NCBI RefSeq assembly: GCF_963921235.1
Contig: NC_086108.1
Location: 80,850,001 to 80,914,000 of the forward strand
Length of the DNA stretch: 64,000 bases
Reading direction: 5' to 3'
Origin: Mobula hypostoma
Lineage: Eukaryota
Numbering within the stretch: the stretch's first letter is position 1; every line of letters starts with the position of its first letter. This document shows positions 2,011 through 61,592 of the stretch, piece by piece. Below the pieces are notes generated by a model. That model had not been told where the DNA came from. It saw nothing but the letters and a program-made list of their open reading frames with translations, and made no database searches. A program made the position numbers and the translations under genes.

Positions 2011-2378
2011 CCGCCTAATTTCATTTTTTGGCCAATCACCCCAACCAAATAAATAACACATTTGGTTTGTCATTTGCAAAACTCGAATAGCTGCTTCTGT
2101 TGCTGTGTTCCGGGTGGCTCTGTATTCTACAGCAGGGCTTCCAAGTCATTTTAGATGAAGGAAGTGCGTTTGGAGATAGCCTTCATTTCAAACTCGGGGC
2201 TCATTCATCTTTCCCACTAATCAATAAGGCCGGAGTTATGTGACCAAAGAATAACTACAGGTCGGACTCTAGGTGTCCCCCTAGAGCAAGTATTGGCGAT
2301 GCGCTGAGGAGGGCAGAAGAGCGGGCAGTCCCGTTCAGGCGGCCTCACTGCGTTCTCTGAAGGCAGCGTGCTTCATAC

Positions 2379-2448
2379 CTGGTCACTTTCAAAGGAGTGC
2401 CAGAGAGGAGAGCGAGTGAGGGAACTACTGCGCTAAACGCTTTATATA
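2379..2448 (-). promoter_or_regulatory. TATA box, Inr and 39-nt non-coding first exon of an unidentified leftward gene
   Basis: Minus strand: TATATAAA 2448-2441, Inr-like TCACT with A at 2417 (31 nt from the first T), donor CAG|GTATGA at 2379/2378. Confidence 0.55.
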
Positions 2449-2602
2449 CCCTTCTTCTTCTCATCACCCGCCACAACTGATCAGGAAATGCATCGGAATA
2501 TTTAATACATTATATTGTTTTCCATCAGGATGCGAAGCCCGAACCAATGGAGTAAGAACTATTCTGTTTGTAACAAGAATGTTTTCTTCTAGACCTGCAG
2601 GA

Positions 2603-2630
2603 ATGGGAGAAACCGGGAGAAACACTAAAG
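2603..2630 (+). CDS. Candidate first coding exon of the LRR-TM gene (MGETGRNTK+G, phase 1)
   Basis: GGAATGG start context; donor AAG|GTAAGA at 2630/2631; phase matches the acceptor at 19628/19629 and reads in frame into the 403-aa ORF. Confidence 0.45.
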
Positions 2631-4349
2631 GTAAGAGAACTCCTATTTACAAAGAGTTATTCTCTCGCTTCTTAAATTCACTTCGGAATTTTATACGGTG
2701 AGGTAAAGTGGAGATGTTTTAGAAGAGATTTGCAGTATATACAAGACGTATACGTCGAGAATATAGGTCCTCGCCTTCCAGTGGGAAGAAGTCCTGAAAC
2801 TATTCAATTAAAACCCTAATGCAAGCATCTCATTGCGAGGTGCGGAGTTTCATGCATTATTTTAGCGAGATGTTAAAACTTGCAGGTAAATACCAGGGAT
2901 TTTCAGGCTGAAAGCACGTGAGCTCGGAAACTGTCAGCACAGGGAAATGTCCAAGCTCAGGGAGAGAAGTTTGGGAGAGTCCGTGGGATAAACGGAAACC
3001 AAGACGTAGCGTGGAATCGGTCGGTTAAATGTGAGCACATTTCATCCGGGGACAAGTAAGGAAAACTATATTATTTCACTTCGTCAATCTGAGTCAACGC
3101 CGAATCAGCACTAATGAACCGAAATGAATACATTGGTGGGGTAAGGAAGTCGATAGTTTACGGGAAATAAAACTTTTCTCTTGGTCCCTTGCGCTCCGAT
3201 GATTGTTTTGGTGGCACCATGCCAAAATATTTAGGGTTTATATAATAAATTATATTTTGTAAAGTTAGGACTGGAAATAGCCATGTTTACTGTGTAGTCC
3301 AGGAAACGGTTTGCCATTTCTTCTCCTTTGTGTGGGCTTCGATCTCTGCCCACATTGGCGCTGTTGTGAGGGATTTAAAACCAAGGGACGCGAAACTATG
3401 CGAAGGCTAGATTACCAACGCGAAAACGCTATCAAATTACTGTAAGGGCATTCGCTTTCATTCTGCATTCCAGTCTGATCCTCAAAACACGGTCTTAAAT
3501 ATGTTCATCTTCCAATAGTCTTGTAGTACAGTCTGAAATACACTGGCAAACCCGTGCACCTGCCTGTGCGTCCTTCTCCTTTGAGGTTTAAAACTGAGCG
3601 TTAGGCTGGTTAGAGCTGCTTTTAGAAATTAACCTGCGGGAGAGGGCTTGTTTATAATCTTACTCACTTCCCGCATTGGCCGTGTCATCGCAAGGGGGAG
3701 TGGTGTGTATTGACAACAATAGCTGCTCCCAGGGTGCCTCAGACCAGTCGCTTTAACGAACAAAACAAACGAAGCAACTTTCAGCTTGCATTCTCGAGAG
3801 GGGAAAACACCCAAAATAAAATCTTGAAGGGAAGGGAGGAACACTATTCACGGACTCGGGTAATTCCTGTTGAGGTTCTCCTTCAGCATCCACTGAATCT
3901 GGGAAACTGGTGGAAAGTGACTCGTCACTTTCCCAAGACTTTCCCTAGCAGCCACAGTGAGACTACAGGTCTTTACATAAGGAAGGACACTGTGGAATTA
4001 TGGGAAGATGAGAGAAGATTCACTGGTCGGTTGGAGGGATTGTTTCATGAGAAACACTCTAGTTCTGTACTAATTAGTACATGTTGCGCCTGTAGTAATT
4101 GGAATTTAGAATGAGTTATGGAGTTGTATAGCACAGAACAAGTTATTCTGCCCAGATCAACCAATGTGCCTTTCTGAGCTAGTTCTGTTTGCCTCCATTT
4201 GGTTCAAATCCCTCTAAACCTTCCTATCCATAAATCTGTACAAATGCCCTTTAAATTCTGCAACTGTACCCACATCCACTGCTTTGACTAGCAGCTTGTT
4301 CCATAAACGCACCATTATCTGCGTGACTTTTCATTTTTTCACTCTCACT

Positions 4350-4700
4350 TTCCACCAGTCTCCCAGCTTCAGTAGATGCTGAAGGAGAGCCTCATCTGGA
4401 ATTGTCCGAGTGCATTTTGGGCAGTAATGAAGGTCCTCCATCTCCCTCTGCCTAAACCATCACACACAGATATAGAAGGATTCTACATTGCTGTTTCGGT
4501 AACAATTTTGCTTTACCAGTCAAGATTGTTAGCCCTGAGCTGAACCCCCAAATGTGGTGGTCTGGTGGACCATTCTTAGTCGGCTTTGACCCTTTGACCT
4601 GTTTGGCATGGGCGACCATACCAAGAGCCAAAGCATAAAGGCCTGACTCCAGGCAACACAGCTCTCTGGGTCATTGAGGCACACAGGCCTCCAAACCCAA
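4350..4700 (-). mobile_element. Possible RTE-clade LINE 5' UTR remnant
   Basis: Minus strand ggtcgcccatgccaaacaggtc...gactaagaatggtcc...gggggttcagctcagggctaacaa resembles RTE 5' ends from memory; no ORF. Confidence 0.4.
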
Positions 4701-4780
4701 TGTGCTAGCTACTACTCTACCACTTAGAGTGTTCATTCAAGGAAAAGAATTCCTGGACTCTCAGTCTCTCCTTTCCATGT

Positions 4781-5631
4781 AGCTACACATGCCCTTACAC
4801 TTCCTCCCTTAGTGCTACACACGCCCTTACACTTCCTCCCTTACCACCATTCAGGGCCCCAAACAGTCCTTCCAGGTGAGGCAACACTTCACCTGTGAGT
4901 CGGCTGGGGTGATATACTGTGTCCGGTGCTCCCGATGTGTCCTTCTATATATTGGCGAGACCTGACGCAGACTGGGAGATCGCTTTGCTGAACACCTACG
5001 CTCTGTCCGCCAGAGAAAGCAGGATCTCCCAGTGGCCACACATTTTAATTCCACATCCCATTCCCATTCTGATATGTCTATCCACGGCCTCCTCTACTGT
5101 AAAGATGAAGCCACACTCAGGTTGGAGGAACAACACCTTATATTCCGTCTGGGTAGCCTCCAACCTGATGGCATGAACATCGACTTCTCTAACTTCCACT
5201 AATGCCCCACCTCCCTCTCGTACCCCATCTGTTACTTATTTTTATACACACATTCTTTCTCTCACTCTCCTTTTTCTCCCTCTGTCCCTCTGAATATACC
5301 CCTTGCCCATCCTCTGGGTCCCACCCCCCCCTTGTCTTTCTTCCCGGACCTCCTGTCCCATGATCCTCTCGTATCCCTTTTGCCTATCACCTGTCCAGCT
5401 CTTGGCTCCATCCCTCCCCCTCCTCTCTTCTCCTATCATTTTGGATCTCCCCCTCCCCCTCCAACTTTCAAATCCCTTACTCACTCTTCCTTCAGTTAGT
5501 CCTGACGAAGGGTCTCGGCCTGGAACATCAACTGCACCTCTTCCTAGAGATGTTGCCTGGCCTGCTGCGTTCACCAGCAACTTTTATGTGTGTTGCTTGA
5601 ATTTCCAGCATCTGCAGAATTCCTGTTGTTT
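4781..5631 (+). mobile_element. Penelope-like element 3' part (GIY-YIG endonuclease plus terminal repeat)
   Basis: FTCESAGVIYCVRCSRCVLLYIGET* ... PVATHFN ... LGSLQPDGMN with one premature TGA; pyrimidine-rich UTR; hammerhead remnant CTGACGA at 5502-5508. Confidence 0.9.
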
Positions 5632-5989
5632 GCGTCATTATAGAGCCTAATGGCTGAGGGTAAGAATGACTTCATATAGTGCTCTTTGGAGCAGCACAGT
5701 TGTCTTAGTCTATTACTAAGTGTTCCTTTGTTTAGCCAAGGTGGTATGCAGAGGGTGAGAAACACTGATGAAGACAAGCCTTCTTCATTATTTTCTGGGA
5801 ACTATGTACTTGTACCTTGAAGTCTCTCTGTTCATCACATTGCCCTGGGCCCTATAATTCACTGTGCATGTACTTGCATCACTTCACACTTATCTGAATT
5901 AAATTCCATCTGCCATTCCAATGCCCACTTTCTCAGTTGATCTAGATTCTGATGTAAAGTTAGATAACCTTCTTCGCTATAAAACCAAC

Positions 5990-7050
5990 ACCACTATTTT
6001 ACAATGCTTCCCTATGTTGTTATCCTGCATTCCCATCCACCTACATTCACAGCTCTCTACTCCCTCTACATTCCCAACTGTGTGAATAAATCCTGCACTA
6101 ACTCCATCTACAGTTTTGCAGGTGATACCACTATAATGGGCAATATCTCAAACAATTATGAGTCAGTGTAGAAGGAGGGAATAGAGAGCCTAGAAACAAC
6201 TACCTTTCCCTCAATGTCAGCAAAACAAAGGAGTTGGTTTGGATTTGGGCGACTGTCAGGAAGAACATAAGAAAAAGGAGCAGGAGTAGGCTATCTGGCC
6301 CATCAAGCCTGCTCCACTATTCAATAAGATCATGGCTGATCTAGCCATAGACTCATCTCTACCTACCTGCTTTTTCCCTGTAACCCTTAATTCCCCTGAA
6401 GGGGACAGTGCAGGTGTCTCTGTTTACATCAAGGCTGCTGAGGTCTTGAGAGTTAACAGTTTCAAGTCCATTGGAGGCTAGAGAAATTTGGAATGTCCTC
6501 TTTGACTCTCAACAATCTTATCAAAGTACCAAACATAGCATCCTATTGAGATGCATCGCAGCTTGGAATGGCAACTGCTGTGTACATCAGCACAAGAAAC
6601 TGCAGAGAATTGTGGACACAGCTCAGCGCATCATGGAAACCAGCCTCTCCTCCTTGGATTTTGTCCACATTTCACTGTCTCAGTTGATGAAAAATCCCAC
6701 CCACCATGGATAATCTCTTCTCCCCTCTCATTGGTCAGAAGATATTAAAACCTGAAAGCATGTACCACCAAGATCAAGGACAGCTTCTATTCCTTCATTA
6801 TAAATCCATTGAACAGTCCCCTGGTATGATAAGATGGACTCTTGACCTCACAATCTATCTCATTACTGTTGGCCTGCTCTGCACTTTCTCTACACTGTAA
6901 CACTTTATTCTGCACTCTGTTATTGTTTTACCTTTTACTATCTCAATGCACTGATATAATGAATTGATCCATATGGACAGTATTCAAGATAAGTTGTTCT
7001 CTGCACTTCAATACATGTGACAATAACAAATCAATCTCCAATTTCTAATT
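5990..7050 (+). mobile_element. Degenerate Rex1/Babar-like LINE, interrupted by a CR1 tail (about 6262-6397, -)
   Basis: FADDT-like and LNVSKTKEL remnants; CIAAWNGNC..KKLQRIVDTAQRI in ORF 6471..6713. Confidence 0.7.
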
Positions 7051-7054
7051 CAAA

Positions 7055-7610
7055 TTGACAATGCGGATGTTAAACAACAGGGGATTTAGCTGTGGTACAT
7101 TATTGGTTACAAGCCTTCAATTTGAAAAACAGCCTTCCACAACCATCACTGTCTCCTTCCATCAAACCCACGTGGTTTCCACCTGGGTCCCATTTGATCT
7201 CACCTTCCAGACCAGCCTACCATGCAGAACCTTGTCAAAAGCCTTGATGAACTTCACCTAGATAATATCTACCACCTTGCCCTCATCAATATTCATGATC
7301 ACCTCTTCAAAAATCTCAATCAAATTTGTGAGACATGACTTTCTATCTGCAAAGTCATGTTGACTATCTCTAATCAGCCCTTGCCTTTCCAAATGTAGAT
7401 AGATCCTGATTCTCGCAATCTTCTCCAGTAACTTTAATATCACCGATGTTAGGCCCCTGACTATAGTTCTCTGGCTTGTCCTTGCAGGTGTTCTTAAATA
7501 AAGGATTAACATTAACCACCCTCCAGTCTTCTAACAAAGACACAAAAATCTTGGCAAGGGCCCCAACAATTTCTCTCTTACTCCCCAAAACATCTTTGGA
7601 TACCTCTGGA
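7055..7610 (-). mobile_element. CR1 RT fragment; continues at about 5800-5995
   Basis: LERQGLIRDSQHDF..KSCLTNLIEIFEEV; EDWRVVNVNPLFK...KPENY. Confidence 0.85.
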
Positions 7611-9109
7611 CATGAGAAGTGATTTTATTGAAGCATTTCATATTTTAAGGAATATTGATAAAGAAGGGAGAGGATGCTTCTCCTGTTTGGGGAAATATAA
7701 CTCATTTAGGATAGAGATGGGAAATGCCTATCAGCAGTTCATGGACCTTTGGAATCCTCTTCCAAAGAGCTGTGGAGGCCTAGAGAGATTTCTGGATTTA
7801 TAAGGGCATCAAGGATATGGATTAGTTAAGAAAATGGAATTGAAGTAATCAATCAGGTGATCTTATTAAATGGCACTGAAGAACCTTACGGTCTATTGCT
7901 GCTTCTAATTCTTGATACTTTGTTAAATGTAGCTGTTGTTGTAATGTGAAAAAGTATCCTGCAACTGAATTTGTAACTAGTTCATTATTTTTATTGAGGT
8001 TTTGATCAGAAGGGGCCTGCATTACTACTGCTTCATCTGCAGTGTTGCATTATGGGATGTGTTGACAAGGATCTTGATGGTTCCCAGGAAATGAAACTGA
8101 GCTCCCCAAGTTTAAGTGTATTCCAAAGACTAAATTAGTGAGAAGGTCCTAAAATCCTGAAGACAGAAGAAATGCAAATTCTAACGCAGTGTCTCAAACA
8201 TAAATGTCAACATTTCCTCTCCCCTCACAAATACTGAACAACCCTTTTCCTCCAGCCATTTTCCCCCCTGAAGTCGTATATCCACTTACCTATGAAATTC
8301 TTTTAGAATTTACCTATGAAATTCTTTTAGAATTGGCTTTTTCTGCCAATGACTAAGTGCAGTGATCACGCGGTATCCCATCTTAGTGCTTTGAGATCTT
8401 TTAGTCAACACATGTAACTTACCTAGAATGAGGAACTCTGGCTGAAACGTGGATGTTCATTCAGAAGAATCAAGTCAGAACAACTGACTATTGCCTTTTC
8501 CCACACTTTGGTATCTACATGCTTTCCTGGTGACTTGTCTCCTAAGTAATGTAACGTCTTTGACTGTCTGAAGCAGTCTGAGATCATGGAATTAAGCCCA
8601 CTTAAGCCAAGCTGCTCTTGACAGGCAAGCACATTCACGCTGTAGCCCAGAAAGGACATCAACAACTCCATCAGTACAGCCAATTTAATCCTCACTCTGG
8701 AGCTAGCTGTTAGTTAGAAACTCAGAAACTAAAGTCCAAGTAAAATGTAAATCACAAAGTATACTCTTAACAAAAAAGATAAATGAAGACATCTAAATTT
8801 ATCTCAGTTCCTCATGTTTATAATATACAGGGCGTTTGCACTACTAATATGTTTGCATTTGTAACATCACCGCATCTAAAAGGCCAATTTGCTCTTTGCA
8901 ATAGATCAGACCAGATGACACATTCTGTTAGTGTCATTATCAACTTTAACTAAATGTGGTTACACTCTCACCCCTGAGTCAGACAGTTGTAGATTCAAGA
9001 CCCATCCCAGAGGAATCTATACAGCAGTGAAGTCAAGAACATAAAACTCTGGCCTGATTTTTATTCCAAAGTGGAACAATGTAAAGATCCCAGTGCACTG
9101 ACGGCTCAC

Positions 9110-10080
9110 CCATGGAGAGAATGGGTAGGCAGGGCTGTTTTCCCTGGAGAATAGGAAGCTGAGAGGGAACCTTATAATGGTTTATAAAATCATGAGGGCT
9201 GTGGATAAGGTGAATGGTCTCAGACTTTTTCCCAGGGTAGAGGAGTCTGCAGCTAGAGGCCATGGGTTTAAGGTGAGAGGGGAAAGAGTTAAAAGGGATG
9301 TTATAGCTGTATATTTTTTCAAGTTCAATTTGTAGTCATTCAACTGTACACATGTATACCGCCAAACGAAACAACGTTCCTCCGGACCAAGGTACATAAC
9401 ACAGTATATATAACTCACACACACAGTACATAAAATGGTATTAACACAAATAAATTTAACAATTAATAAGATGCGTTTTCGACACAAGTTAAAAAGTAAA
9501 CAGTAAAGGGCTACTGACACTTCATACGTGATGAGACCCTGATGCTGGCAGGGAGTTCGGTAGTCTTATAGCCTGGAGGAGGAAGCTGTTTCCCATCCTA
9601 TTAGTTCTTGTCCTAATGCTATGTTACCTCCTGCCTGATGATAGGGGTTCAAAGAGATTGTCGGATGGATGGGAGGGATCATTGATAATGCAAAGGGCCT
9701 TATCAAATACAGTGGTCCTGGTGAGTATCTCGGACGAGGGAAGAGAGACCTCAACGATCCTTTCAGGAGTCCTTGCAATCCTCTGTAGGGAGTTGTGGTC
9801 AGATGCCTTGCAATTTCCATGATGCTGCTGGTCAGGACACTCTCGATGGCTCACCTGTAAAAATTGGTTAGAACGGGGGTGGGGGGAGGGGATAGGGTTC
9901 ACTTAGGGCACTTAGTGGTTATATGGAATGAGCTACCAGAGGAAGTGGTAGAGGCAGGTACAATTATAAAGTTTAAAAGACATATGGGCAGCTACTTAAA
10001 TAGAAAAGGGTTTAGAAGCACATGTGCCAAGTTGGGCTGAAAGGTCTGCTTACGTGCTCTGTAACTCTATATCTCTAAGT
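9110..10080 (+). mobile_element. CR1 3' fragment containing an antisense Rex1/Babar-like insert (about 9320-9870)
   Basis: CR1 tail sequence resumes after 9900; insert translates as LQRIARTPERIVEVSLPS...INDPSHPS..LFEPLSSGRR. Confidence 0.75.
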
Positions 10081-13000
10081 ATAAATGGATCAATCAATTT
10101 TTGACTATTAAAGGAATCTAGGAATATGGAGTGATATTTAAAGGTCAGCATTGAACTCAGCATGGGGCTGAAATTCATACATAATTATGTTAAAGCATCT
10201 TGGTTTAACCAGTCTGTTAAAAGCTGCAATTTTTTTGCATCTGCTCTCAGATCCTGCAGGTGCTGTCCTCAGTAGCAGGGAGTTGGTGGACATGGGGTGG
10301 AGATAGATAGTAAATCAGCTGTGATCGAATGGCTGAGTAGACTGATTCTGATCCTATGTCATATGGTCTTACGTGTCAGGGAGTGTGGTTACAGGGAAAT
10401 TAAACGTGGGAATAGAATTGATAGGATTGCTCTGAGAGCTGTAATAGATCTGATGGGCTGAATAGCCCCATCCTACATCATCAGAAAATATGGACGAGTA
10501 TAATATGAAGCAAGGTGTGGGAAGTTGAACAGAGCATCTTAGGGAGAAGATTAGGAACAGGTCTTCTGGCTGTCATATAACCTTCATGATCCTAATATTA
10601 ATTAGGACCTGTTCCTAATATTAATGACTTGGAAACTGAAAAGTGGCAAAAAGCTTCAAATGCAAATAATTTAGAGAGGTAAAAAGTATTTAGGCAGTAA
10701 ATGTACAGTACTGTATTTTGTACACAACTCCCTATTTAGGCTTGCTCTTTAAAGGGGATCAAAATGTTTTCAACTTGTAAAATAACTGAATAATTATCTC
10801 CAACTAATACAGAATTTCTTGTTATTGCTTAACTGAGTTGTTCATAAAGTTTATTACAGGAAACTCATACTTCAATGCCTTTCTGGCACTCAGGAAAGGG
10901 TGTGGGTACAGATGGAATTCCTAATGGCACAGGGTTAAGATAAGGCAGTTTTTATTCAATGTGCTATTATTATCAGGACTCTTATCATGCTTCTACTAAA
11001 GTTGGACTTGATAAACTCCAACAATATGTTTTACAATAAAAGAAAGCATGTATTCTAGTTTCAGGAAAGTTCCAAAATAATTCATTTTATACTGACTGGC
11101 GTCAATGTGTGTTGACAGGACATATTTAATGGAAAATATTCCTTCTCTGTCGCACCCTCCTCAATAAAGCCACTAATGAATCCATAGCTGACGGTCTGAA
11201 GCAATTAATGAGTTAGGTGAGGAAAAATCATGCTGAGTTTTTTTTCCATATTGTAGTTAATCTTGTTAGCTAAAATGCAAGTTTTTTTTTAAGCTGAATG
11301 GTATCTTGTGGGTTTACTGTTGCCCTGTGGGAATATTTTTTTTTAATTGACCACAATGTCAACAATCTGAGCAAAAGCAGCACACACAAGACGCTGGAGG
11401 AACTGTGCAGGTTAGGCTGAGACTCTTCTTCAGGACTGAGCAAAAAGTGGCCATTGGGTGTGCTGGCAATGCGGCAGTGATTGGGACCAAAGTGAGATCT
11501 GGTGGCTGATTTAAAGTACCCCAGCCCTAAGAGATCCACAGGAAAGCATCTACAACCCAGAAACCTCAAACTCCTTCTCCAGTCATGCCCCCAGCTGTCA
11601 GCAATAATGTTGCTAACTTACAATCACATGGTATTTCCAATTGTATGATAATGTCAGCCAATAGTTGAATATCAATAACATTCAAATTTGGCTTGACAGC
11701 TAATATTTGCATTGCAGAATGCCGGGTGATGACTGTTTTGAAAGTGCCTGCCTTGACAAGTCATTGCGGAGTCCCACACGGTTAACTTTGTGTGTGCGGG
11801 GAATGGTGGTTACTATAGTGCACAATGACCATCGATCAGAAGGTAAATTAGACCAGACCAGATGATAAGGGAATGGGAGGCATTGCAATGATAAAGCCTG
11901 GGGAGGAGCAGAGAATCTGAAGTTGGCACAATGAATCACCAGAACGGAAGAGTACAGCGTGTCTAGCCAGCGACCAAGGGCAGCAGAGACTGGTTAGCTT
12001 TCAATTAGTCCCCGATAATCTGTCATGTAGCTGTTCCATACCCAAGATATGGCTCACTAGTTATGGTCAAATCATGGACACAGTCCTTCTATTCATAAAA
12101 AGATTGAGATGGTATTGTTAGGAGTCATTTTGGACATTTTTCAGGAATTATGGACTAAAGGGAGCAGCTAGTTAATTAAGAGTATACTAATAAACTCTTC
12201 TTGGGCACAGTTTGTCACTGAAATGTCGGTTAAAATCAAAGCTGTACCCAGCTGGTAGCCGGAGAAGAGTTTATTCATCATATACACCAGTAAAGTACTA
12301 GATCCTGTTTAAAAAGAAACTGTTCATAATTTAACTTCCACTGATACTTTAAGGCCATCGATACCAGTCATCATATGTGTAATATTCTCATTCTGTACCA
12401 TGGAAACTAAACAGGGGAAGACAAGTAATGTACGTTCATGTTAATCCTTGAAGCCTTCGTGCCTTCATGATGAGATCAGAGGGCAATATGCAACCATCAC
12501 CTGAGATAACACATCATTAAAGACATAACCATTCCACTTAATACACAGTTCAGGACATGTCTGTTTTGTCAGTTAATATTCCAGCCATTTCGATATTTAG
12601 GGAGCCATCTCATCAACATAACAAGAGAAGTATACTTGGATGTCTATCTTTTTTCCTAGAATCCCTTGGACTAGTCACTGTTATTTAAATATTGAAAAGG
12701 GTTCTACAAGTTGAGATGTACACCTATTGTAAAGATGTATTTCTGTAAAGTTACCTGTCTGCACTGAAAATGCTAAGTAGGAAATTATAGTCACTGAAGT
12801 TTCAGTTTGTTGCTTATTGTTCAGTATTTAAAAAGTATAAAATGCCAGTACGCGGTTGAAGGAGAGGAGAAATAGATTCTCCAGAAGACCAGCTTGCATG
12901 AGCTTTGGTCTCTAGTGGTTTTGTCACAGTCACGGCAGTACAATGGTTTTCACCTGCAATTTCCATAGTTTTTGAGCTGTAATCTGCACCGTGCTGAAGG

Positions 13001-14084
13001 ATGAGACAAGCACTATGTCACAGAAAGAAACAAATAACAAAGTTTTACTTTAAAGTAGAAAGTGATTGCAATCAGTACAAGTTGCTGGCATCATTAAATT
13101 AAATGCAATAGAATCTGTTCTACTGAAAGAGCGCTTTTGTCTAAAATATTAACTTTCAATCATTCAGTAGTTTTGTGCATGAACAGTGAAGTGTTCAGTA
13201 ATTTGAATGAATTAATTTTAAAATGCAAAACTATACTGCACCACATAAAAATGCTTTCATGTTGGTTGTCTATGTGTTCCAAAGTGCTTCAAATACCAGT
13301 TATTGTGGATTACAATGAATACTACTATATGGTCAAATGATGGTAGTCTGGAAAAGGGGAAGATAAAGACAGAAACAAGCCTGCTTTGATCTTGTATGGC
13401 AGTTGAACAGTTTAGAAGTGAGTTCTTCACAAAACTTTATATTAAAATTACACCTTCAAATGTTACCTTCCCTTTCATGCTAGGTTCCTTTGCTGAAAAG
13501 TTACCTGGCACCAAGGAGAGAATTAATAAACTTTGCAATATGTACCCATAAGGCCAGTGACTTCCTCTCCAGGTATATAAACTGGATTCACCATTAGCCT
13601 CAATAACTGATTTTCATTTAGATGGCAAGTATAAAACAGCGAGATATCCCAAGACATTTCACTGGAGCAGGCCAAACAAAAGTTTGACACCACGTTGCTT
13701 AAGGAGGTGTTAGGGCAGAAGCACAAGAGCTAGGATAAAGAGGAAGGTTTCAAGAAGCATATCAAAGGAGAAAAATGATGTGTGGAGACAGCAGAGTTTA
13801 GGAAGAACAGCACAATTCACCAGAAGACATGTTTTCCATGAGTGAGGAAATTCCATTTGGATACAATAAAGTAGTCTGATCGGGAGCATCTTTTTCTTGC
13901 TGGTCATTACGGTCGGTAATGTTGACCCCAATGCAGGGTCTTGACCTGAAATGTCAATTATCCCTTTCCCTCCATAGACGCTGCCTGACATGTTGAGGCG
14001 TTCAAGCAGCTTTTCATTTTTGCCCCGGATTACAGCATCTACGGTCTCAACGCAACTAATGTTTTGTTGTTTCCAGCCCCTTAG

Positions 14085-14510
14085 TATGAACATAGAATTT
14101 TCCAACTTCTGGTAATTCCCTCCCCCTCCCTTCCCCTATCCCTATTTCACTCTGCCCCCTCCCCCAGCTGCCTATCACCTCCCTCATGGTTCCGCCTCCT
14201 TCTACTACCCATTGTGTTTTCCCCTATTCCTCCTTCACCTTTCCTGTCTATCCCTTCCCTGTCTCCCCTCCCCCACCCCTTTATCTTTCCCCTTACTGGT
14301 TCTTCACCTGGAACCTTCCAGCCTTCTCCTTCCCACCCTCCCCCCACCTTCTTTATAGGGCCTCTGCCCCTTCCCCCTACAGTCCTGACGAAGGGTTCCG
14401 GCCTGAAACATCGAACAATCGTTTCCACGGATGCTGCCCGACCTGCTGAGTTCTTCCAGTGTGTTGTGAGTGCTGCTTTGACCCCAGCATCTGCAGAGTA
14501 TTTTGTGTAA
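14085..14510 (+). mobile_element. Penelope-like element 3' UTR/terminal repeat
   Basis: End of EN ORF, pyrimidine tract, CAGTC-CTGACGA-AGGGTTCCGGCCT-GAAACATC motif at 14380-14412. Confidence 0.8.
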
Positions 14511-15044
14511 TGTATTGTTGGGCTGCGGGGCTGGAGGGGATTATAGAGCTAGCAAGAAATGAAGGGATTTGAAAACCAGGAAGAGAATTTTAAAATCTCG
14601 GTGTTGCTTAAATATGTTAGGTTGGCAACAGTGGGGGATGTGCAAGTTGGATTCGATGTAAATTAGAACAATAGTGGTTGTTGACTTTTGGATGACTCAC
14701 ATCCAATCGAGGCTGGCTAGGAATGCCTTGGAATAGCTAAATGGTATCAAAGTAGTGCACGAGTGTTTCAGCAGCTAATGAGCTGATGTTGAAACTGAGG
14801 GGGCTGTTAAAGAAGTGAAAATGACCGGTGTTCAGTGGTGTCACAGGGGCCCAATTTTCAATGTTGACATTGGCTTAAAAAGGACCTCAGGTAGTGTTAT
14901 TAACAGGCCAAACCTGCTGAGGAGGCCAGGAGAAATTAAGATGTTTTTTGTCTTTTCTGGTGTTGAATATTTCAAAAATGGAATTTGGCCTCCTGTGGGT
15001 CCTAAAGCAACAAGCAACCAGTATGACCCATAATCAGTCAGCTG

Positions 15045-15860
15045 CATGCTTAGACCCCTGCACTACTCTGCATATGTACTTGAATGTGTGGCCAAGCACA
15101 GCTCTGATGCCATCTTCAAATTCACTCACAACCTGGCTGTTGGACAAATATCAGACGGCAATGAGTCAGCTTATTGGAGCAAGATAGGTCACCTGGGTGA
15201 GTGGTGCCATAACAAGAACCTCTCACTCAATGTCAGCAAAACTAAAGAGCTGATTCTTAACTTCAGGAAGGGAAAGGAGGACAGATATGTAGTGGTCTAC
15301 ATTGGGGGATATCAGTAATGGAGAAAGTCAGCATCCACAATTTCCTAGGTTATGAATGACCAGTCCTGGACCAATTATATTGATGCAATCGTAAGAAAAT
15401 GGCAGCAGAGTCTTGACTTGCTTAGGAGGTTAAGGAGGTTCAGCTTGCCCCCAAACAGTCTAGTAAACTTCTACAGATGTGTAGTGGAAAGTATTCTGAC
15501 TGGTTGTGTCAGGCACTGCAATTCAAATGCGCAGGAACGTAAGAAGCCACAAAGAATAGTTGTCTCTGCCCAATACTCCACGGACACATCCCTCCCTATC
15601 ATTGGAAGTACCTACAGGAGGCAACATTTATAATCAAACATTCCCACGACGTGGGCCATGTCATCTTCTCATAGCTATCATCAGATAGTAGATACAGAAG
15701 GCTGAAATGCCACACCACAGGTTCAAGAACAGCTACTCACTTCAGCCAATCATTTCTTGAGCCAACTGGCAAAACCCTAATCACTACAGTTTAGCAACAC
15801 AATAAGCACTTCAGTCATTTTGCACTAAAATGTACTTTGTTTTGTTCTAATTGTGTATAA
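15045..15860 (+). mobile_element. Rex1/Babar-like LINE 3' fragment
   Basis: WCHNKNLSLNVSKTKELILNFRK; LLRRLRRFSLPPNSLVNFYRCVVESILTGC. Confidence 0.8.
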
Positions 15861-15868
15861 TTTATAGG

Positions 15869-18800
15869 CCATAAGACTTCAAGACATAGGAGCAGAATTA
15901 GGCCATTTGGATTATCAAGTCTGCTCTGCCATTTTATCATGCTGATCCATGTTCCCTGTCAGCCCCAATCTCCTACCTTCTCCCCATGATCCCTTCATGC
16001 CCTGACCAAATAAGAATCTATCAACCTTGCCTTAAGTGTAAATACAGATTTGGCTTCCACAGCTGCCTGCGCCACTGATTCAGCACTCTCAGGCTAAAGG
16101 AATTCCTCCTCATCTCCATTCTAAAAGGATGCTCTTCTATTCTGAGGCTGTGTCCTCTGGTCTCAGACTCTCCCACCATAGAAAATATCCTTTCCACATC
16201 CACTCTATCAAGGCATTTCACTATTTGATAGGTTTCAATAAGGTCATCCCTCATTCTTCTGTATTATACAGACCCAAAGCCATCAAATAGAACATAGAAC
16301 ATAGAATAGTACAGCACAGTACAGGCCCTTCGGCCCACAATGTTGTGCCAACCCTCAAACCCTGCCTCCCATATAAGCCCCCACCTTAGATTCCTCCATA
16401 TACCTGTCTAGTAGTCTCTTAAACTTCACTAGTGTATCTGCCTCCACCACTGACTCAGGCAGTGCATTCCACGCACCAACCACTCTCTGAGTAAAAAACT
16501 TTCCTCTAATATCCCCCTTGAACTTCCCACCCCTTACCTTAAAGCCATGTCCTCTTGTATTGAGCAGTGGTGCCCTGGGGAAGAGGCGCTGGCTATCTAC
16601 TCTATCTATTCCTCTTATTATCTTGTACACCTCTATCATGTCTCCTCTCATCCTCCTTCTCTCCAAAGAGTAAAGCCCTAGCTCCCTTAATCTCTGATCA
16701 TAATGCATACTTTCTAAACCAGGCAGCATCCTGGTAAATCTTCTCTGTACTCTTTCCAATGCTTCCACATCCTTCCTATAGTGAGGTGACCAGAACTGGA
16801 CACGATACTCCAAGTGTGGCCTAACCATATGATAAGATGTTCAAATCTGGAATCATTTTCGTGAATCTCTTTTGAACCCTCTCCAGTTTCAGCATACCTT
16901 GTCTAAGATAAAGGGCCCAACACTGCTGACAATACTCCAAGTGAGGCCTCACCAGTGCTTTATAAAGGCTCGACCATTACATCCTTGCTTTTATATTCTA
17001 GTTCTCTTGAAATGAGTGCTAACATTGCATTTGCCTTCCTCACCACAGACTCGACCTGCAAATTAACCCTTAGGGAATTCTGCACAAGGACTCCCAAGTC
17101 CCATCTATACCCTCTTAATGACCTTTTTAGTTGCCTTCTGTTGGTATTTGAAAGCTTCCCAATTCTCTAACTTAGCACTAATTTTTGCTCAATTATATGC
17201 CCTCTTCTTGGCCTTTATGTTGGCTCTGACCTCTCTTGTTAGCCACGATTCTGTCATCTTGCCTTTAAAATACTTCTTCCTGTTTAGGATGTATATCTCC
17301 TGTGCCTTCTGAATTGCTTCCTGAAATTTCTGCCATTGCTGCTCTGCCATCATCCCTGCCAGTGTTCTTTTCCAATCAATTCTGGCCAACTCATTTCTCA
17401 TGCCTCTGTAATTCTCTTTACTCCACTGTAGTACCGATACATCTGACTTTAGCTTGTCCTTCTCAAATTTCAGGGTGAATTCGATCAAATGATGATCACA
17501 CTCCCCCAAGGGTTCTTTTACCTTAAACTTTCTAATCAATTCCAGGTCATTGCACATCATCCAATCCAGAATAGCTGATCCCCTAGTGGGCTCAACTATG
17601 AGCTGCTCTAAAAAGCCATCTCATTGGCATTCTAGAAATTCCCCCTCTTGGAATCCAGCACCAACCTAATTTTCCGAATCTACCTGTATATTGAAATCCC
17701 CCATGACTATTGTAACATTGCCCTTTTGGCATGCATTTTCTATCTCCCATTGCAATTTGTAGACCACATCCTTACTGCTGTTTGGGGGTTTGTAAATAAC
17801 TCCCATTGGGGTCTTTTTATCCTTGCAGTTCCTTAGCTCTATCCACAATGATTCAACACCTTCCAACCCTAAGTTACCTCTTTCTAATGATTTGATTTCA
17901 CTTTTTTTTACCAACAGAGCAATGCCACCCCCTCTGCTTTCCTGCCTGTCCTTTCAATACAATGTGTATCCTTGGACATTAAGCTCCCAGCTATAATCTT
18001 CTTTCAGCCATGATTCAGTGATGCCTACAACATCGTACATGCCAATCTGCAACTGTGCTACAAGTTCATCTACCTTATTCTATATCATATGCACAATCAA
18101 ATACAGTACAACACCTTCAGTCCTGTATTCACCCTTTTCAATTTTTTTCCTTCTTTTACATTGCAACCCATCCTGTTGGCTGCAATTTTGCCCTATCAAT
18201 AGCCTCTGCTTGCTAGGAGTCTCACTACACACTGCCTCTGTTTGTAAACCAACTACCTCATCTCCAGCACTATCACTCCGGTTCCCACCCCCTGCCAAAT
18301 TAGATTAAACCTACCCGAACAACTCTAGCCAACCCGCCCACAAGAATATTGGACCCCATTGGGTTCAGATCTAAGCTGTCCCTTTAGTACAGGTCATACC
18401 TTCCCCAGAAGAGATCCCAGTGATCCATAAATCTGAACCCCTGCCCCCTCTACCAGTTCCTCAGCTACACATTCACCTGCCAAATCATTCTCTATTCTTA
18501 CCCTCACTGGCATATGGCACAGGCAGCAATCCAGAGATTACTATTCTGGAGGTCCTGTTTCTCAGCTTTCTATCTAGCTCCCTAAAGTCTCTGTTCAGGA
18601 CCTCCTCACCTTGTCTACCTATGTCATTGATGCCAATATACACGAAGACTTTTGGCTGCTCACTCTCTCCTTTGAGAATGCCATGATTCAAGACATCCCT
18701 GATCCTGGCACCAGGGATGCAACATACCTTCCAGATGTCTCTATTGTACCCACAGAACCTCGTCTCTGTTCCTCTGACTAAGGAATCTCATATCAACATT

Positions 18801-19400
18801 GCAGTCCTTTTCACCTCTCTACTCTTCTGAGCCACAGCACAAGACTCGGTGCCAGAGACCTGGTCACTGTGGCTCCCCCCTGCTAGCTCATCCCCCTCAA
18901 TAGTATCTAAAGTTGTATACTCATTATTGAGGGGAACAGCCACAGGTAGACGCTGCATTGGCTATGCATTTCCACTCTTTCTCCTGACAGTCACCCACTT
19001 ACCTGTCTCCTGCGATCAAGGGGTGACTACCTCCTTGCATCTCCTGTCTATCACCTCCTCATTCTCCCATATGAGTTGAAGGTCATCAAGCTGCAGCTCC
19101 AGTTCCTTAATACATTCTCTCAGGAGCTGCAACTCGGTGTACCTGGTGCAGATGTGTTTATCTGGGAGACTGGACATCCCTCAGACTTCACACATTCCAC
19201 AAACTGTACAGAACACTGCCTCTGGAGCCATTCTCACTATCTACTATCCCTAACAGACGAGGAATGAACAGAGGGATAGAACAACTTACAAGATAATATA
19301 CCTCGCCCAAACCTGATGAGCCAAAGCCACTCTAAAGACTGGCACTCTCCAAAAGAATGGCTGCTCCACTTGCACATAGATTATTCTTAATGCCCCTTTC
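15869..19400 (-). mobile_element. Internally deleted CR1 LINE (ORF1 esterase-like, APE endonuclease, ORF2 C-terminus, tail)
   Basis: ILKGESEQPKVFVYIGINDIG..IVISGLLPVP (ORF1); ESLWIELRN..GVIYKPPNS..MGDFN (APE); MRDDLIETYQI; RT core missing at about 17100. Confidence 0.9.
16287..16827 (-). mobile_element. Young 5'-truncated CR1 nested in the older CR1
   Basis: Uninterrupted 157-aa ORF VRPHLEYRVQFWSPHYRKDVEALERVQRRFTRMLPGL...; (TTCTATG)n tail at about 16287-16308. Confidence 0.9.
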
Positions 19401-19645
19401 TAATGAATCTCTCTTTCTGATTGGTCACTCCTCAAACCAGAAAAACTGCTGTGAAACTCTGCCTTCAAAATCTTGACCTTATGTTTTCCTTGTGAATGCT
19501 GCTTATTTGTTGCTATTTGCCTGTGATTCTTTCCAATGGATTGTGCATATGACAATAAACTCGATTGGCTTTGTTTCTTTAACTGCGATTTTTCTGTCAT
19601 TTCACCCCGTCCTGTTGTGTTTCCTCAGATACCAAGTCATGGAAA

Positions 19646-20857
19646 ATGCTACTGCAGTGGATTCTACTTCTGGCATTAAGGGAAAGTCATGGGGCTGTGA
19701 ATGAATTCTGCAAATGTGATGTCAATCTTGACTTCAGGACATTCAACTCCAGCTATGCAAGACAACAATGCTGTTTAAATTTCACTGGGTCTTCCATTGG
19801 TGCCCTTCACTGGAATGCCTTCACTGACCTGACAGGACTAATGGTGCTCGACCTGTCAAGTTGTAACATATCTGACATCTTGGATACGGATGAAACTCTG
19901 AGCTCTCTGGAGATCTTATACCTGGACCACAATTATTTAGAGCGATTACCTTCTAATTTCCTAACAAATGCACCCAATTTAAAGGTCCTTCACCTCGAGG
20001 GAAACAATCTTCAAGAATTACCAAAGGACATTTTAGAGAAATCAGACCAGATTAAGGAGCTATACTTGGATTCCAATAATCTGATTTCTATTCCTCCTAG
20101 TGTCTTTAGACCAAGCCTTGAAAAATTGTCTCTTTTTAATAATACTTTGCAGTGTACATGTGCCTTGTATGATGCATTGACAAAATATAATTCAAGTGTC
20201 TTTGTATCGGAAAATGGGCCCACGTGCTTTACCTCTAAGCACACAAAAGGTCTGAATATCATAGATCTTCATCGCTCAGATATCTGCAGGTCCCACAGCC
20301 TTACTGCTCTCTTCATTTGCCTCCCTTTCATCTTGATTCTTGTTCTAGTGTTGGGTTACTTCTGCTGTAGAAGAAGGAGGGCTGATTTTAAAGGGATTAG
20401 ACAAGACAATCACATTTGTACTGTGGAGAAGTCTGGCTTTACAAACCTGGAGGACCATCACTACATAACATGCAGAACCCCAGAGCCAACTCCTACCCTT
20501 GCAGGACATGAGAACAGCATACTTGCCAGAAACCAGTTCATGTTACGTCCCTCAGTAGCACTGCTAGGGAGTAACCGTGACTTGTACGAGGAAGTGGAGA
20601 TAAAGCTTGGTAGTTCTGTTGACTCCATTGCAACTGCTGATGACATCTACCTTAACATGTCAACTAAGAAATCAGAAGAAGAAATAGTCGACGACGTCCA
20701 TATGCAACCAGAGCTGGCGAGTGTGACAGACGAGTTACAAGAGATGGATCGACAAAGGCTCTACATGAATAAATCAGCAAACTACTATAATCTAGTTCCT
20801 GGTATTGAACTAGATGACTCTGACCATGGTGAATATGAAAATATTGACTTATCTTAA
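19646..20857 (+). CDS. Type-I transmembrane leucine-rich-repeat protein with tyrosine-motif-rich tail (LRRC25-like architecture; orthology not established)
   Basis: 403-aa ORF; signal peptide MLLQWILLLALRESHG; 5 LxxLxLxxN/C repeats; LRRCT (LQCTC..C..C); TM about aa219-239; CCRRRR; preceded by a polypyrimidine tract and AG acceptor at 19627-19628. Confidence 0.93.
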   Translation: MLLQWILLLALRESHGAVNEFCKCDVNLDFRTFNSSYARQQCCLNFTGSSIGALHWNAFTDLTGLMVLDLSSCNISDILDTDETLSSLEILYLDHNYLERLPSNFLTNAPNLKVLHLEGNNLQELPKDILEKSDQIKELYLDSNNLISIPPSVFRPSLEKLSLFNNTLQCTCALYDALTKYNSSVFVSENGPTCFTSKHTKGLNIIDLHRSDICRSHSLTALFICLPFILILVLVLGYFCCRRRRADFKGIRQDNHICTVEKSGFTNLEDHHYITCRTPEPTPTLAGHENSILARNQFMLRPSVALLGSNRDLYEEVEIKLGSSVDSIATADDIYLNMSTKKSEEEIVDDVHMQPELASVTDELQEMDRQRLYMNKSANYYNLVPGIELDDSDHGEYENIDLS

Positions 20858-21716
20858 TGATATAGAATAATTAGTAAGACAAATTGTACAAAATCTAAAT
20901 TAAGATGGATGCAGTAAGGCAGACTGTAGAAAGGTGGTGAAGGTGAACTGAGAGAACTTGAAGAATAAGAAAAATAGAATACTTGATTGAAATGGAATCA
21001 ATAGGAGAAAATGCAGGCTAGCATTGGGGTTATGAAGCTCTGCTGTGTCAGTACTCTTCAACATATGGTATGTCAAGGCCAGGAACCCAGCTCAGCTAAA
21101 TTTAGCAATGTTATCCATCATCAGATTCTGATGTCGATAAACTCCTGGAGGAAATTGCAGAGGTAACTTAGTGGAATGAGAGGTGAGAGAGATCAGATCC
21201 AACTTGGTTCCAATAGTATCATTTGCTTTTCAAGAACAATCCACTATCAAAATAAGGGTCAATTCTTTAAAAAAAAATGTGCCTGTTAAAACATACTTCA
21301 AGCGTCCCATCTAGGAATGTTAAAATTTAGCACCAACTTGAGCCTACTACGAGTAGGAAATGGGTGAGTCTGGTTTAGACCCCCATTTTATGTACTAAAA
21401 TTAATGAAATTAACAGAGGATGACTTAGACTGGATGAAAATGTGCTTCCAATTCAAAACAATCTCTAACGTACCATATAAATAAAATCAAAACTCGAAAG
21501 TTTGATCAGACTTCCATATTTATTTTTAGCAGTTGAATGTTAAATTCAATTAATCAGACTGAAAAGACTGGTGATCTCTTGGTTTCACAATATCTAATCT
21601 TTCTCAATCTTCCTTGCTATACTGGATGGATGAGTGAGACAGCCAGTTTTACAGGTTCACTGAGAGTTTTAGAGTAGACTTGTGGCAGTTCTTGGATTTT
21701 ATTTTGTATGTTCATG

Positions 21717-21722
21717 AATAAA
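21717..21722 (+). terminator. Candidate polyadenylation signal of the LRR gene (alternative at 21480-21485)
   Basis: AATAAA followed about 20 nt later by GT-rich gttgtgatgtgg. Confidence 0.45.
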
Positions 21723-24417
21723 TGTATTTATAATTCATCCAAGTTGTGATGTGGAAGGGTGAGCCTGTCAGTCATATTGACCAACAAAGTGCTTAAGAGG
21801 GGGAAAGCAGAGGAGCTACTACAAGGCCTATTGCAGTCGTTTCCCTAATCCCCACTTATGTGCTGATAAGACACTCTTCCCAACACAGAGCAGGTGGGGA
21901 AACAAGCTGGCCCCCCCACAGCAACTCACTCCAGTGACCAGCCTTCCACCTGTGCCTGGCACAACCCACCCATGAACAGCTGTAAGGGGGTGATCGTAGA
22001 TCGCTAGGCTGGTCTGTAGGTCTATAGGTACAACTTTGAAGGATCTGTTGATGCCTCTGTTGGATCTCCCCAAGTTTATTTTGGTTGGTTGCAATCTCAC
22101 GGTAACATTCTGTGAATTCCCTGACATGCCAGCAGAAAACCTTCCTGGAACTCATCCAAGGCACTGAGGGAGGTGTGATGCTAGGAGCAACACATCCATC
22201 ACCTACATCTTGCCCTGGATATTGAATAAGAAATACTGCCACATCCTGTCTTGCACACTGGAAATGAGATTTCACCTGGAGATTACCTTGCAACCCAGAT
22301 GAAGCCTGCACTGTGTTGGGGTCATAGCAATATCTGAAAGCCCCTCCCCAACACTCTGAGAACAGGAAAGGTTAAACTCAGTCTTGGGAATCAGAAAGAT
22401 ATTCAAGTATAGGCTTGAGCCCAATTCTGACTTCACCATATCCACAAACCACTACAAGACTACTAAGGTGGTGAACTTTGCCTACTGTAATGCTTCTTAG
22501 CTGGGAGGTAACAAACTCAAATGTGGCATTCTAGTCCCATTCCTGTTGAGCTCAGTACTGATCAAAGTTTTAAATTGTTTTACCCTTTTCCATGGCAATT
22601 TTACACTCTGAACTATTCTTAGGGAATATTTCTTAGGATTATTTCAAGTAACAAGTCATGCTAACTTGGTACTTTTGAGATACCATTACTTGACTCCACA
22701 ACTGTGGTGTGGGAAAATGAGCACACTGTCAATTCTCTTGCAGCTGCATCAAACAACAGTGGAAAAGCCTACTTAATGTTGGATTGTAATATGGAAGTGC
22801 TACACTTGTATAAAGCTCGAATTGCTGTAAATAATTTGTTCCTTAATGTTTGCATAAACCAATAGTTTTTTATGATTTTTAAGCAGGCCTTTTATAATTA
22901 CATTATAGCCAGCTTTAATAATTACTCTAAACATAGTACATTTGTCCTTTCCAATGCATTTTGTGGCCTTTGGGCGTTAAAGGATTATTTCATATATTAA
23001 AACAATGGTCATAATCAAGTGTCCAACCTCAAGGACATCCTTGCTGTATCAATTGCACAAAGATATATAATATTAATAACTCAAAGTCCTACCATTTGGA
23101 TCCTTCCAGAGTTAAAAGGAAAGAAAACATTTAAACAACTGTAATTTCAGTTTGATATGTCTTTCAATCTGTTGTTGTTTTTCATTTAAGAATGTGATCC
23201 ATGGACAACCTGAGCAGTACAATCTAGAGGGTAAGCCTCAGTCTATTTGAGGGTCAGTCTATCTTTTGTGGGATTTCATGCTGCTAATGCTGGGACAGAA
23301 AATGTTTCTGTCTGAAATAAAGGGAAAATGTTCTATATTCAGCCCTTTGGGAACAAAAACTGTGCCTTTTAATATTAATGTAATGGTAACTAAGATTAAA
23401 ATAGCTCTATTTAATCTACCTTTTTCCTGAGTCACAAATTCATTGTTGCACACATCATAGAAGTGTTATGTTTGAAATATTATTTCAATACCAACAAACT
23501 TCCAGCTGTGTTTTTCATATTTCCTTTCAGACTTATGAAGAATGATTTTATAAATAGAACAATTTGAAGAGATTATTTCCCGCCTTGCTCTTCTGCAGCC
23601 ATCAGTGATTAGTGCCTGTTGATAATAATGGCCCCATTCTCCTAGTTAACCACAGAGTAGCAGCTCTTTGGCAAAAGTCAGTCGAAAGATAAGCAAAGAG
23701 CAAAAATCCTCTTAGAATTCAACCTTCTCTGAAATCTGGTGCACACAAACCAGTTCAAAGTCTGTGACATGTGGTAGCTGTGCCTTCCATGGTTCTTATT
23801 TTGTCCGGTCAACACACGGAATTCTGGAAAGCCTGTGAATCTTTTGGAACTCAAAACTGAAATACACAACAGAAAAACACCTTAATTTGAATCCTGATTG
23901 ATGGTAGAAAGATTGGGTAGGGTTGCATCAGTATACATAGGGTGTGAGAGTTCTGTATAATTATAATCAATATTAAAATGTTGTTCTGGAACAGCAAATT
24001 AAACATATTATTTGGCTTTATTTCTCCTCTGAGTTTAATTATCCCATCCTAGGAATCTATCTGGCAAAACTTCATTTTGCTTTTTTTTTAACTCAAGTGT
24101 GTCCTTCCTCCAGTAGGGAAACAAACATATGCGCACTTTTCCATCTAATCTCACCAGGCCCCATAAAATTGCAATAAGATATTGGTCTTTAGACTAAAAT
24201 TAAAGCCTTTGCAGATGTTGAAATTTTGATTTTAAAACAGGAAAATCCTTAGATCGCCTGCAGTAAGGTCACTAATGTGAAATGATAATGTTTTCCCTCT
24301 GCCCTGATATCTTCTAATGCCCTGTTGCATATTTCCACCATTGTGTGGTTTTACTTCAGTCATTTATTATTTTTGAACCTGTGTCTTCTCTTCCTGTAGC
24401 TGTAATTTAGTTTGCTG

Positions 24418-61379: not shown

Positions 61380-61592
61380 TTATCACATTTATCACGTGAA
61401 AGCAGCAACTTCACACCTTTCTTCATGTGTGAATGCTTAGCCGCTGCTAAATATTATTCAAAATTTCCAAAGGATCAGGCCTACTGTAACATTAATTTCC
61501 AGATCTTAACGTTTGTGTGTTTATGTGTTAATACAAGTTGCTAATTAACTTAGTCTAATTGCAGCAGGCGGAGTTAATAATAGTATTAGTAT

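Follow-up and report, generated by a model that had tools for sequence, protein, structure and literature searches.

Gene structure and transcript

The window, that is the whole stretch of 64,000 nucleotides of Mobula hypostoma DNA that was analysed, contains on its plus strand an open reading frame (19646-20857) encoding 403 amino acids. The first-pass annotation had described this frame; it exists at that length, but the ATG at 19646 is internal and the true start lies in an upstream exon (Table 1). A splice joint linking position 2630 to position 19629 was found in contigs of 4/4 sequencing runs, whose RNA nature was only guessed and whose records give no tissue of origin. The joint is a precise GT..AG junction and therefore reflects a spliced transcript. 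Exon 1 contributes the first 9 codons, counted from 2603, plus one base. The protein thereby gains 15 N-terminal residues from ATG 2603 (418 aa) or 23 from ATG 2579 (426 aa), and the 426-aa form is 99% identical to a Mobula birostris protein of 426 aa (P0002). The 3' ends of the transcript contigs fall at 23380-23386. Throughout the text, residues are numbered in the 403-aa frame beginning at 19646.

A 20-codon upstream ORF (2530-2592) overlaps ATG 2579 out of frame, and its stop precedes ATG 2603. Initiation of the 418-aa form may be favoured by this ORF. Transposon-derived ORFs were also observed in the window, at 30876-33474 on the minus strand, which we take to be hAT-like transposase pieces, and at 16355-17560, 25463-25906, 27493-28005 and 60968-61426, presumably LINE-like fragments.

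Table 1. Features of the ray gene, of the neighbouring bestrophin remnants and of the ray LRRC25-like gene. Positions refer to the window unless another locus is named.
Feature	Position	Strand	Remarks
Exon 1	2318..2630	+	in-frame ATGs 2579 and 2603; 5' end at least 2318
Intron	2631..19628	+	16,998 bases, GT..AG, phase 1; 4/4 runs, 2 studies
Exon 2	19629..23385	+	remaining CDS to stop at 20857, then 3' UTR of ~2.5 kb
Signal-peptide core (predicted)	19649..19693	+	LLQWILLLAL...SHG; weakly hydrophobic
N-terminal cap	19709..19774	+	invariant C22, C24, C42, C43 (CxC-x17-CC)
LRR strands	19772..20137	+	six concave-face strands: one degenerate, five LRRs
LRR C-terminal cap	20138..20287	+	C170, C172, C194, C214
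Transmembrane helix	20300..20362	+	aa 219-239
Juxtamembrane C240-C241 and RRRR (R242-R245)	20363..20380	+	
Y273ITC	20462..20473	+	Tyr lost in most ray-finned fishes, retained in lobe-finned vertebrates and in cartilaginous fishes
Conserved block 1	20549..20602	+	PSxxLLGSxRD[LI]Y314EEVEI
Y335LNM	20648..20659	+	lineage-specific
Conserved block 2	20720..20773	+	SV...DR...Y373; YxxQ (bony vertebrates) or YMxK (cartilaginous fishes)
Conserved block 3	20777..20854	+	Y380Y[NS]LVP-x-I-x-L-x-DSD-x2-EY397E[NS][VI]DL
Bestrophin exon-1 remnant	L009:8463-8579, C50 span 80,922,463-80,929,295	+	no intact start
Second bestrophin remnant	L010:5134-5295, C50 span 80,922,463-80,929,295	+	two stops
Ray LRRC25-like gene	L071:2810-3594 and about C73:27,609,960-27,610,105		two coding exons, the second predicted; 309 aa

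Ectodomain, membrane segment and fold

The domain layout first proposed for the protein, a small LRR ectodomain followed by a transmembrane segment and a long tail, was borne out by Pfam and AlphaFold. Solely LRR families were found above the Pfam cut-off, in agreement with the annotated lack of TIR and kinase domains; the TIR of Toll-like receptors was also missing from the structure model and from the PDB profile search. The names 'toll-like receptor 3' or '8' borne by some orthologues are automatic labels.

The fold obtained from the single sequence was poor (pLDDT 39). Using an alignment of 78 sequences, AlphaFold returned a confident LRR ectodomain of six concave strands with caps (pLDDT 80-98) and a helix at 217-246, followed by a tail of low confidence, mostly with pLDDT near or under 50. 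The signal-peptide region appears in the model as a helix at 2-13, with a peak hydropathy of only 0.64. A glycosylation sequon at N45, within the LRR strand region, is conserved. C240-C241 and R242-R245 were located where the first-pass annotation had placed them. C240 is kept in 227/234 orthologues and at least two cysteines occur in the juxtamembrane stretch in 228/234, so that the LAT/PAG-like cysteines proposed earlier are a conserved character; they are predicted to be palmitoylated.

Solved LRR ectodomains (glycoprotein Ib alpha, LRRTM2, Slitrk1, 5T4, Slit2 D2, VLRs) likewise form a capped extracellular solenoid. Foldseek comparisons with solved LRR ectodomains gave E values of about 1e-8 to 1e-6 at 18-32% identity, with no clear best match. 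This fold match is generic, whereas the CxC-x17-CC cap and the tail are specific to the family of the ray gene.

Orthologues and genomic neighbourhood

On sequence grounds, the ray gene, present in a single copy, is orthologous to si:ch211-106k21.5 (ENSDARG00000086052), a zebrafish gene not yet characterised. A homologue search gave 175 matches, the best 120 of which are full-length relatives from sharks, a chimaera, coelacanth, lungfish, amphibians, reptiles, birds and ray-finned fishes. Among these best 120 of 175, several are named si:ch211-106k21.5 and the others carry inconsistent automatic names. Identity to the records of that name is 86% for Pristis and 45% for Latimeria, and the tail profile gave matches as well. 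Chicken XP_004936975.1 and Xenopus LOC101732938 are further uncharacterised orthologues, and the full-length profile, searched over proteins of 107-762 aa, gave teleost orthologues only among its best 120 of 506 matches. A FastTree phylogeny of 86 listed sequences mirrors the species tree, 13/13 unnamed rows falling within named non-mammalian clades. Searched against the ray genome, the tail matched itself alone at E<0.01. The ray protein thus shares with the other si:ch211-106k21.5 orthologues full-length homology, the same tail blocks and a species-congruent tree; it differs from them by extra Grb2-type asparagines and the YLNM motif, and by lacking YxxQ and T/V at -2 of Y380.

Homology, phylogeny and synteny all led to an uncharacterised orthologue and to no characterised counterpart of this tail. 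The receptor had been called uncharacterised from the outset, and this description stands: the gene is annotated, and no paper on it was found in the literature searched. Queries with the gene name, the clone, orthologue identifiers, ENSDARG00000086052, BEST4/PLK3 synteny and mammalian loss gave no main-text match.

On C50, the contig of the ray gene, a PLK2/3-type gene lies on the opposite strand ~35-45 kb before exon 1. Two decayed bestrophin exons are found downstream on the same strand, with RPS8 farther away. By their labels we take the neighbours to be PLK3 and BEST4, and the locus presumably corresponds to human 1p34. Adjacency to best4 is backed by catshark, lizard and goose annotations, with three records filed under best4 (P0009, P0014, P0031) and one fusion model (P0112); this suggests shared exons or read-through with BEST4 where BEST4 is intact. 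The position beside BEST4, examined as a mark of orthogroup membership, holds in the ray. Other exons of the neighbouring bestrophin were not found, and intact bestrophins of the ray were found solely on C45 and C81. We assume from its position that the decayed gene is BEST4, and loss of BEST4 in devil rays is possible.

No mammalian name was seen among the best 120 of 175 matches to the ray query, the best 120 of 122 to a turtle tail or the best 120 of 506 to the full-length profile, in searches run without a mammalian positive control. Against 1.84 billion representatives, the tail profile gave 21 matches, 17 of them under non-mammalian names. Among the tail-profile matches, P0123, with no visible species, groups with Conger, P0129 is a bird-like fragment, and P0133 was rejected as unrelated low-complexity sequence. 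Section 10 of PMC2235866, the section consulted for mouse and human LRR-only singletons, lists no protein of such size and build. Gene loss in mammals appears likely from these searches.

Conservation and motifs of the tail

The tail (aa 246-403) consists of 158 residues, with 7 tyrosines, 19.6% D/E and 8.2% K/R. It contains no Pfam domain, a profile search against the PDB matched only a transmembrane segment (E 2.3), and a search of the Atlas with the tail alone gave no usable match. The unstructured prediction and the lack of a Pfam or PDB domain are as expected for a tail made of linear motifs. Six motifs had been listed beforehand (Y273ITC, Y314EEV, Y335LNM, Y373MNK, Y380YNL and Y397ENI). 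All are real and at the positions given, but the list had missed YxxQ at Y373, [TSVIL]xYY[NS]L at Y380 and the fixed 7- and 17-residue spacings described below. Four YxN motifs were reached in 0.024% of 100,000 shuffles of the ray tail (P=0.00024, with the motif chosen post hoc).

Conservation was evaluated with 234 proteins, one per match among those listed in the homologue and profile searches, cluster-member lists being left out, as were the unrelated P0133 and P0002, which is almost identical to the query. This set comprises 11 cartilaginous fishes, 120 ray-finned fishes and 103 lobe-finned vertebrates including tetrapods, with unnamed rows placed by assumption. The alignment of orthologous tails shows that the tyrosine motifs are not lost: Y314 is kept in 228 proteins, Y373 in 231, Y380 and Y381 in 232 each and Y397 in 224, which amounts to 96-99% for these five residues. 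Mean identity reaches 0.81-0.82 in tail blocks 299-322 and 356-403, as compared to 0.54 in the ectodomain; that of the tail linkers is 0.38 (246-298) and 0.33 (323-355). Spacing is fixed within the distal part, with 7 residues from Y373 to Y380 in 219/234 and 17 from Y380 to Y397 in 216/234, whereas the distance between Y314 and Y373 varies from 39 to 75 residues.

The sequences around these tyrosines are in part family-wide and in part lineage-specific. At Y314, [LI]Y[EQ][EQK][VI] is found in 226/234, and the terminal YE[NSTK][VI] in 215/234. At Y373, YxxQ occurs in 203/223 bony vertebrates and in 0/11 cartilaginous fishes, all 11 of which, the ray included, have K at +3. At Y380, [TSVIL]xYY[NS]L is present in 216/223 bony vertebrates (TxYYxL in 183, VxYYxL in 30) and in 2/11 cartilaginous fishes, the ray not being one of them; 9/11 cartilaginous fishes have A at -2, as does the ray. 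YxNM is found in 6/11 cartilaginous fishes; among the 223 bony vertebrates, none has YxNM and 2 have YxxM. Tails carry 3-5 YxN in all 11 cartilaginous fishes and 0-2 in ray-finned fishes, 49/120 of which have none; across the family the Grb2-type asparagine positions drift to S/T. The LAT/CD28-style character first ascribed to the tail does not hold in this respect, as its Grb2 YxN and YxNM sites are not conserved throughout the family.

Two other candidate motifs were discarded. A JAK box-1 motif is not supported, with PxP or PxxP at most 30 aa from the transmembrane segment in only 42/234, and there is no conserved PDZ-type C terminus, the ends being different (VDLS, IDLH).

Relation to LRRC25

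LRRC25 (MAPA), a myeloid type I LRR protein, has like the ray protein a small LRR head, a single transmembrane segment and a multi-tyrosine tail. It is described as a protein of ~300 aa with 2 LRR, an LRRCT and a transmembrane segment (Table 1 of PMC2235866, consulted in part). Human LRRC25 has 305 aa, a YENM motif and an ITIM-within-ITAM (PMC6107485, in part) and flanks GDF15 (PMC7299427, in part). The ray gene does not match this build, with 418-426 aa and 5-6 repeats, and the place beside a GDF15-like gene is held by another ray gene (C73, 47 kb apart). The latter encodes a protein with few LRRs, a transmembrane segment and a YENV site, its tail being split over two exons. From sequence and position we infer that this C73 gene is LRRC25; the gene studied here is accordingly not LRRC25, a separate LRRC25-like gene being predicted in the same genome. 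An LRRC25-type gene is thus present in cartilaginous fishes.

The first-pass annotation had proposed a receptor related to, and longer than, LRRC25. The greater length is clear, and kinship of the ectodomains is plausible: the LRRC25-like ectodomain is colinear with the family profile, LDW and LxxCxISxI included (hhalign probability 98.1, E 8.4e-14), an LRRC25 cluster is, apart from the family itself, the named Atlas family that scores highest (0.95; 184/256 features), and C50 and C73 each bear JUN-family and SSBP genes. A close kinship is disfavoured by segment scores, in which the LRRC25-like protein ranks 2nd to 4th of 7 ray LRR proteins, and by a reciprocal genome search with it, which retrieved only itself and not the ray gene. 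Kinship of the tails is undetectable, since equally high scores were reached in 75/400 and 239/1000 shuffles, and in 341/2000 for the profile score. A resemblance of the two tails in a Y-7-YxN pattern was not significant. The LRRC25-like protein of the ray also differs by its fewer LRRs and its own locus. Overall, we consider the odds of paralogy with LRRC25 to be about even.

On C73, between 25.7 and 27.7 Mb, a kelch/BTB (KEAP1-like) gene lies immediately upstream of the SSBP gene, ISYNA1 is located at 25.93 Mb, the LRRC25/GDF15-like pair at 27.6 Mb, and between them, at 26.49 Mb, is a JUN-family gene. No LRRC25 was found in the interval of C73 preceding the SSBP gene (25.53-25.93 Mb), and a PGPEP1 family search gave nothing. 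We take the gene order of human 19p13.11 to differ from that of C73.

Expression of the zebrafish orthologue

The ray protein had been proposed to be a leukocyte receptor. This is not borne out by zebrafish data, as the orthologue has no match in thymus/marrow or blood marker tables. ENSDARG00000086052 is missing from 18 supplementary files of PMC9365674, in which single cells of thymus and kidney marrow were studied, and from 3 files of a blood-cell study (PMC5725498), control terms being found in both. The gene had no match in the supplements of PMC8517238 and PMC10948150, searched without a positive control, or in the available part of the TPM table in the supplement of PMC6499218. These zebrafish tables are marker and module lists rather than expression tables, so that strong leukocyte-specific expression is weakly disfavoured. 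The sole match was obtained in PMC5690287, a time course of whole embryos, in the list of PC6 genes; its authors, in the part consulted, tie PC6 to a spike at 3-4.3 hours. This listing, which gives neither the sign nor the size of the gene's own expression, is a lead only.

Proposed function of the receptor

We propose, with a probability of about 0.6, that the gene encodes an orphan non-catalytic LRR receptor, the tail tyrosines of which, once phosphorylated by Src-family kinases, would serve as docking sites for SH2 proteins. The docking role of the tail is well supported by the 96-99% conservation of its five tyrosines. In such a mechanism, the LRR solenoid would bind a ligand and the receptor would cluster, the palmitoylated cysteines setting it near Src-family kinases, and the tyrosines in acidic context would become phosphorylated. 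Src and Nck SH2 domains prefer pYEE[VI]; [LI]-pY314-EEV may thus bind a Src-family or Nck-type SH2 domain, thereby sustaining phosphorylation. The distal pair, T/V-x-pY380-Y-[NS]-L and E-pY397-E-[NS]-[VI], would act as one ITSM/ITIM-like module, most likely recruiting SHP-1/SHP-2. In bony vertebrates, pY373xxQ may add STAT3. In cartilaginous fishes, the same sites would be tuned to Grb2 by N at +2, some species gaining a PI3K/Grb2 YxNM. The working mode would be that of BTLA, PD-1 or LRRC25 and not that of a LAT-type adaptor: below the LRR head, the tail would serve as a docking site that can be switched.

Several details qualify this scheme. The ITSM consensus (TxYxx[VI]) has V/I at +3, and known SHP-2 two-site receptors have a tyrosine spacing longer than 17 residues; here, +3 of Y380 is L. 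The ray fits neither the ITSM (A at -2 of Y380) nor YxxQ (K at +3 of Y373). Since it lacks T/V at -2 and Q at +3 and leans to Grb2, the signalling output may not be the same in all lineages. At 18-26 aa, the conserved blocks exceed what an SH2 motif needs, and another partner may lie behind them. Tails of this type usually operate in haematopoietic cells, a setting not supported by the zebrafish thymus, marrow and blood marker tables, from which the gene is missing. As for the signalling background, the ITIM ([SIVL]xYxx[IVL]) and ITAM consensus and PI3K binding by YENM are given in PMC6107485, STAT3 binding by YXXQ and SHP-2 recruitment by the PD-1 ITSM in PMC7851441, and the combination of Grb2 sites with ITIM/ITSM in BTLA in PMC12765318 (each source in part). 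BTLA and PD-1 have, as here, a non-catalytic tail with Grb2-type sites and a distal ITIM/ITSM-like pair (excerpt of PMC12765318). They differ by carrying an Ig head, whereas the ray gene has an LRR head, a spacing of 17, L at +3 and no T/V at -2; no homology is claimed, BTLA being by analogy the closest working parallel.

A more specific history is possible but doubtful. The gene would have arisen together with LRRC25 in the genome duplications of early vertebrates, as its lost sister. Its Y-7-YY-17-Y module, neither an ITAM nor a classical ITIM-ITSM, would have been kept for ~450 million years in every major jawed lineage but mammals, and its tuning would have shifted from Grb2/PI3K, as in sharks, to STAT3/SHP, as in bony vertebrates.

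An activating receptor coupled to Syk/ZAP-70, in effect the proposed docking receptor with another output, appears unlikely. The stretch YY[NS]L-x13-YE[NS][VI] would then be a stretched ITAM, of the form known in Fc-gamma-RIIA, or, in a variant of this reading, the acidic DSD-x2-EYExV would be a hemITAM as in CLEC-2. Indeed, YY.L-x13-Y..[VI] is shared by 216/234 orthologues from each of the three groups (11/11 in cartilaginous fishes), both tyrosines are preceded by acidic residues, and the LRRC25 tail itself is an ITAM-with-ITIM (PMC6107485, in part). However, the ray tail does not match the consensus YxxI/L-x7/8-YxxI/L, its spacer being 13 residues against 7/8 (same source, in part), or 12 if counted from Y381, with V then at +3. 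No match to thrombocyte or leukocyte markers was seen in the zebrafish tables.

A trafficking or clearance receptor is improbable as well. The tyrosines would then act unphosphorylated as Yxx-hydrophobic sorting signals for the AP-2/AP-1 mu subunits, and the DSD cluster would be a kinase-regulated sorting signal. YEEV, YYNL, YNLV and YENI fit Yxx-hydrophobic, and the tail has 5 such motifs, a number reached in 0.8% of shuffles; S309, S359 and S392 are invariant in acidic contexts and L306-L307 is conserved. However, Y373 is kept in 231/234 although its +3 residue is Q or K, a protein usually needs no more than one or two sorting signals, and acidity at positions -1 to -3 is in keeping with tyrosine-kinase sites.

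We regard as quite improbable the model of the first-pass annotation, in which a LAT/CD28-like leukocyte platform for Grb2/Gads and PI3K would be the core function. LAT, LAT2/NTAL and PAG1 resemble the ray protein by their juxtamembrane cysteines, acidic disordered tail, several tyrosines and terminal YEN[VI]; the excess of YxN in the ray tail, the 3-5 YxN of every cartilaginous fish, the YxNM of six of them and the conserved cysteines speak for this model. However, transmembrane adaptors of the LAT/NTAL/PAG type have an ectodomain of few residues, whereas that of the ray protein is a 200-aa LRR domain, and the Grb2 asparagines are not conserved family-wide. The CD28 family has an Ig-V ectodomain and a conserved YxNM; here the head is made of LRRs and YxNM occurs in 6/234. 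With YxNM lacking and YxxM nearly so in bony vertebrates, many ray-finned fishes devoid of YxN and no leukocyte marker match, this model would be valid at most for sharks and rays.

Finally, an annotation by-product, such as an isoform of BEST4 or an LRR remnant without function, as the best4-filed records and the fusion model might suggest, is refuted almost beyond doubt by conservation across jawed vertebrates and by an independent transcript, the ray gene being intact and spliced while the adjoining bestrophin has decayed.

We therefore return to the non-catalytic receptor with an SH2-docking tail. Its kind is already known, since LRRC25 likewise combines a tyrosine tail with an LRR ectodomain; what is new is the distal tyrosine module of fixed spacing, its lineage-specific tuning and the apparent absence from mammals. 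Conservation is higher in the tail blocks than in the LRR head and therefore points to fixed intracellular partners from sharks to chickens, with SH2-site specificity shifting between lineages on fixed tyrosines. The gene is experimentally tractable: it has one main coding exon, its zebrafish orthologue is named, and the five tyrosines are defined. If the lost-sister reading is true, the pathway would be present in zebrafish and chicken and missing from mice and humans. If SH2 docking is true, zebrafish and chicken would possess a receptor pathway invisible to mouse- and human-centred surveys.
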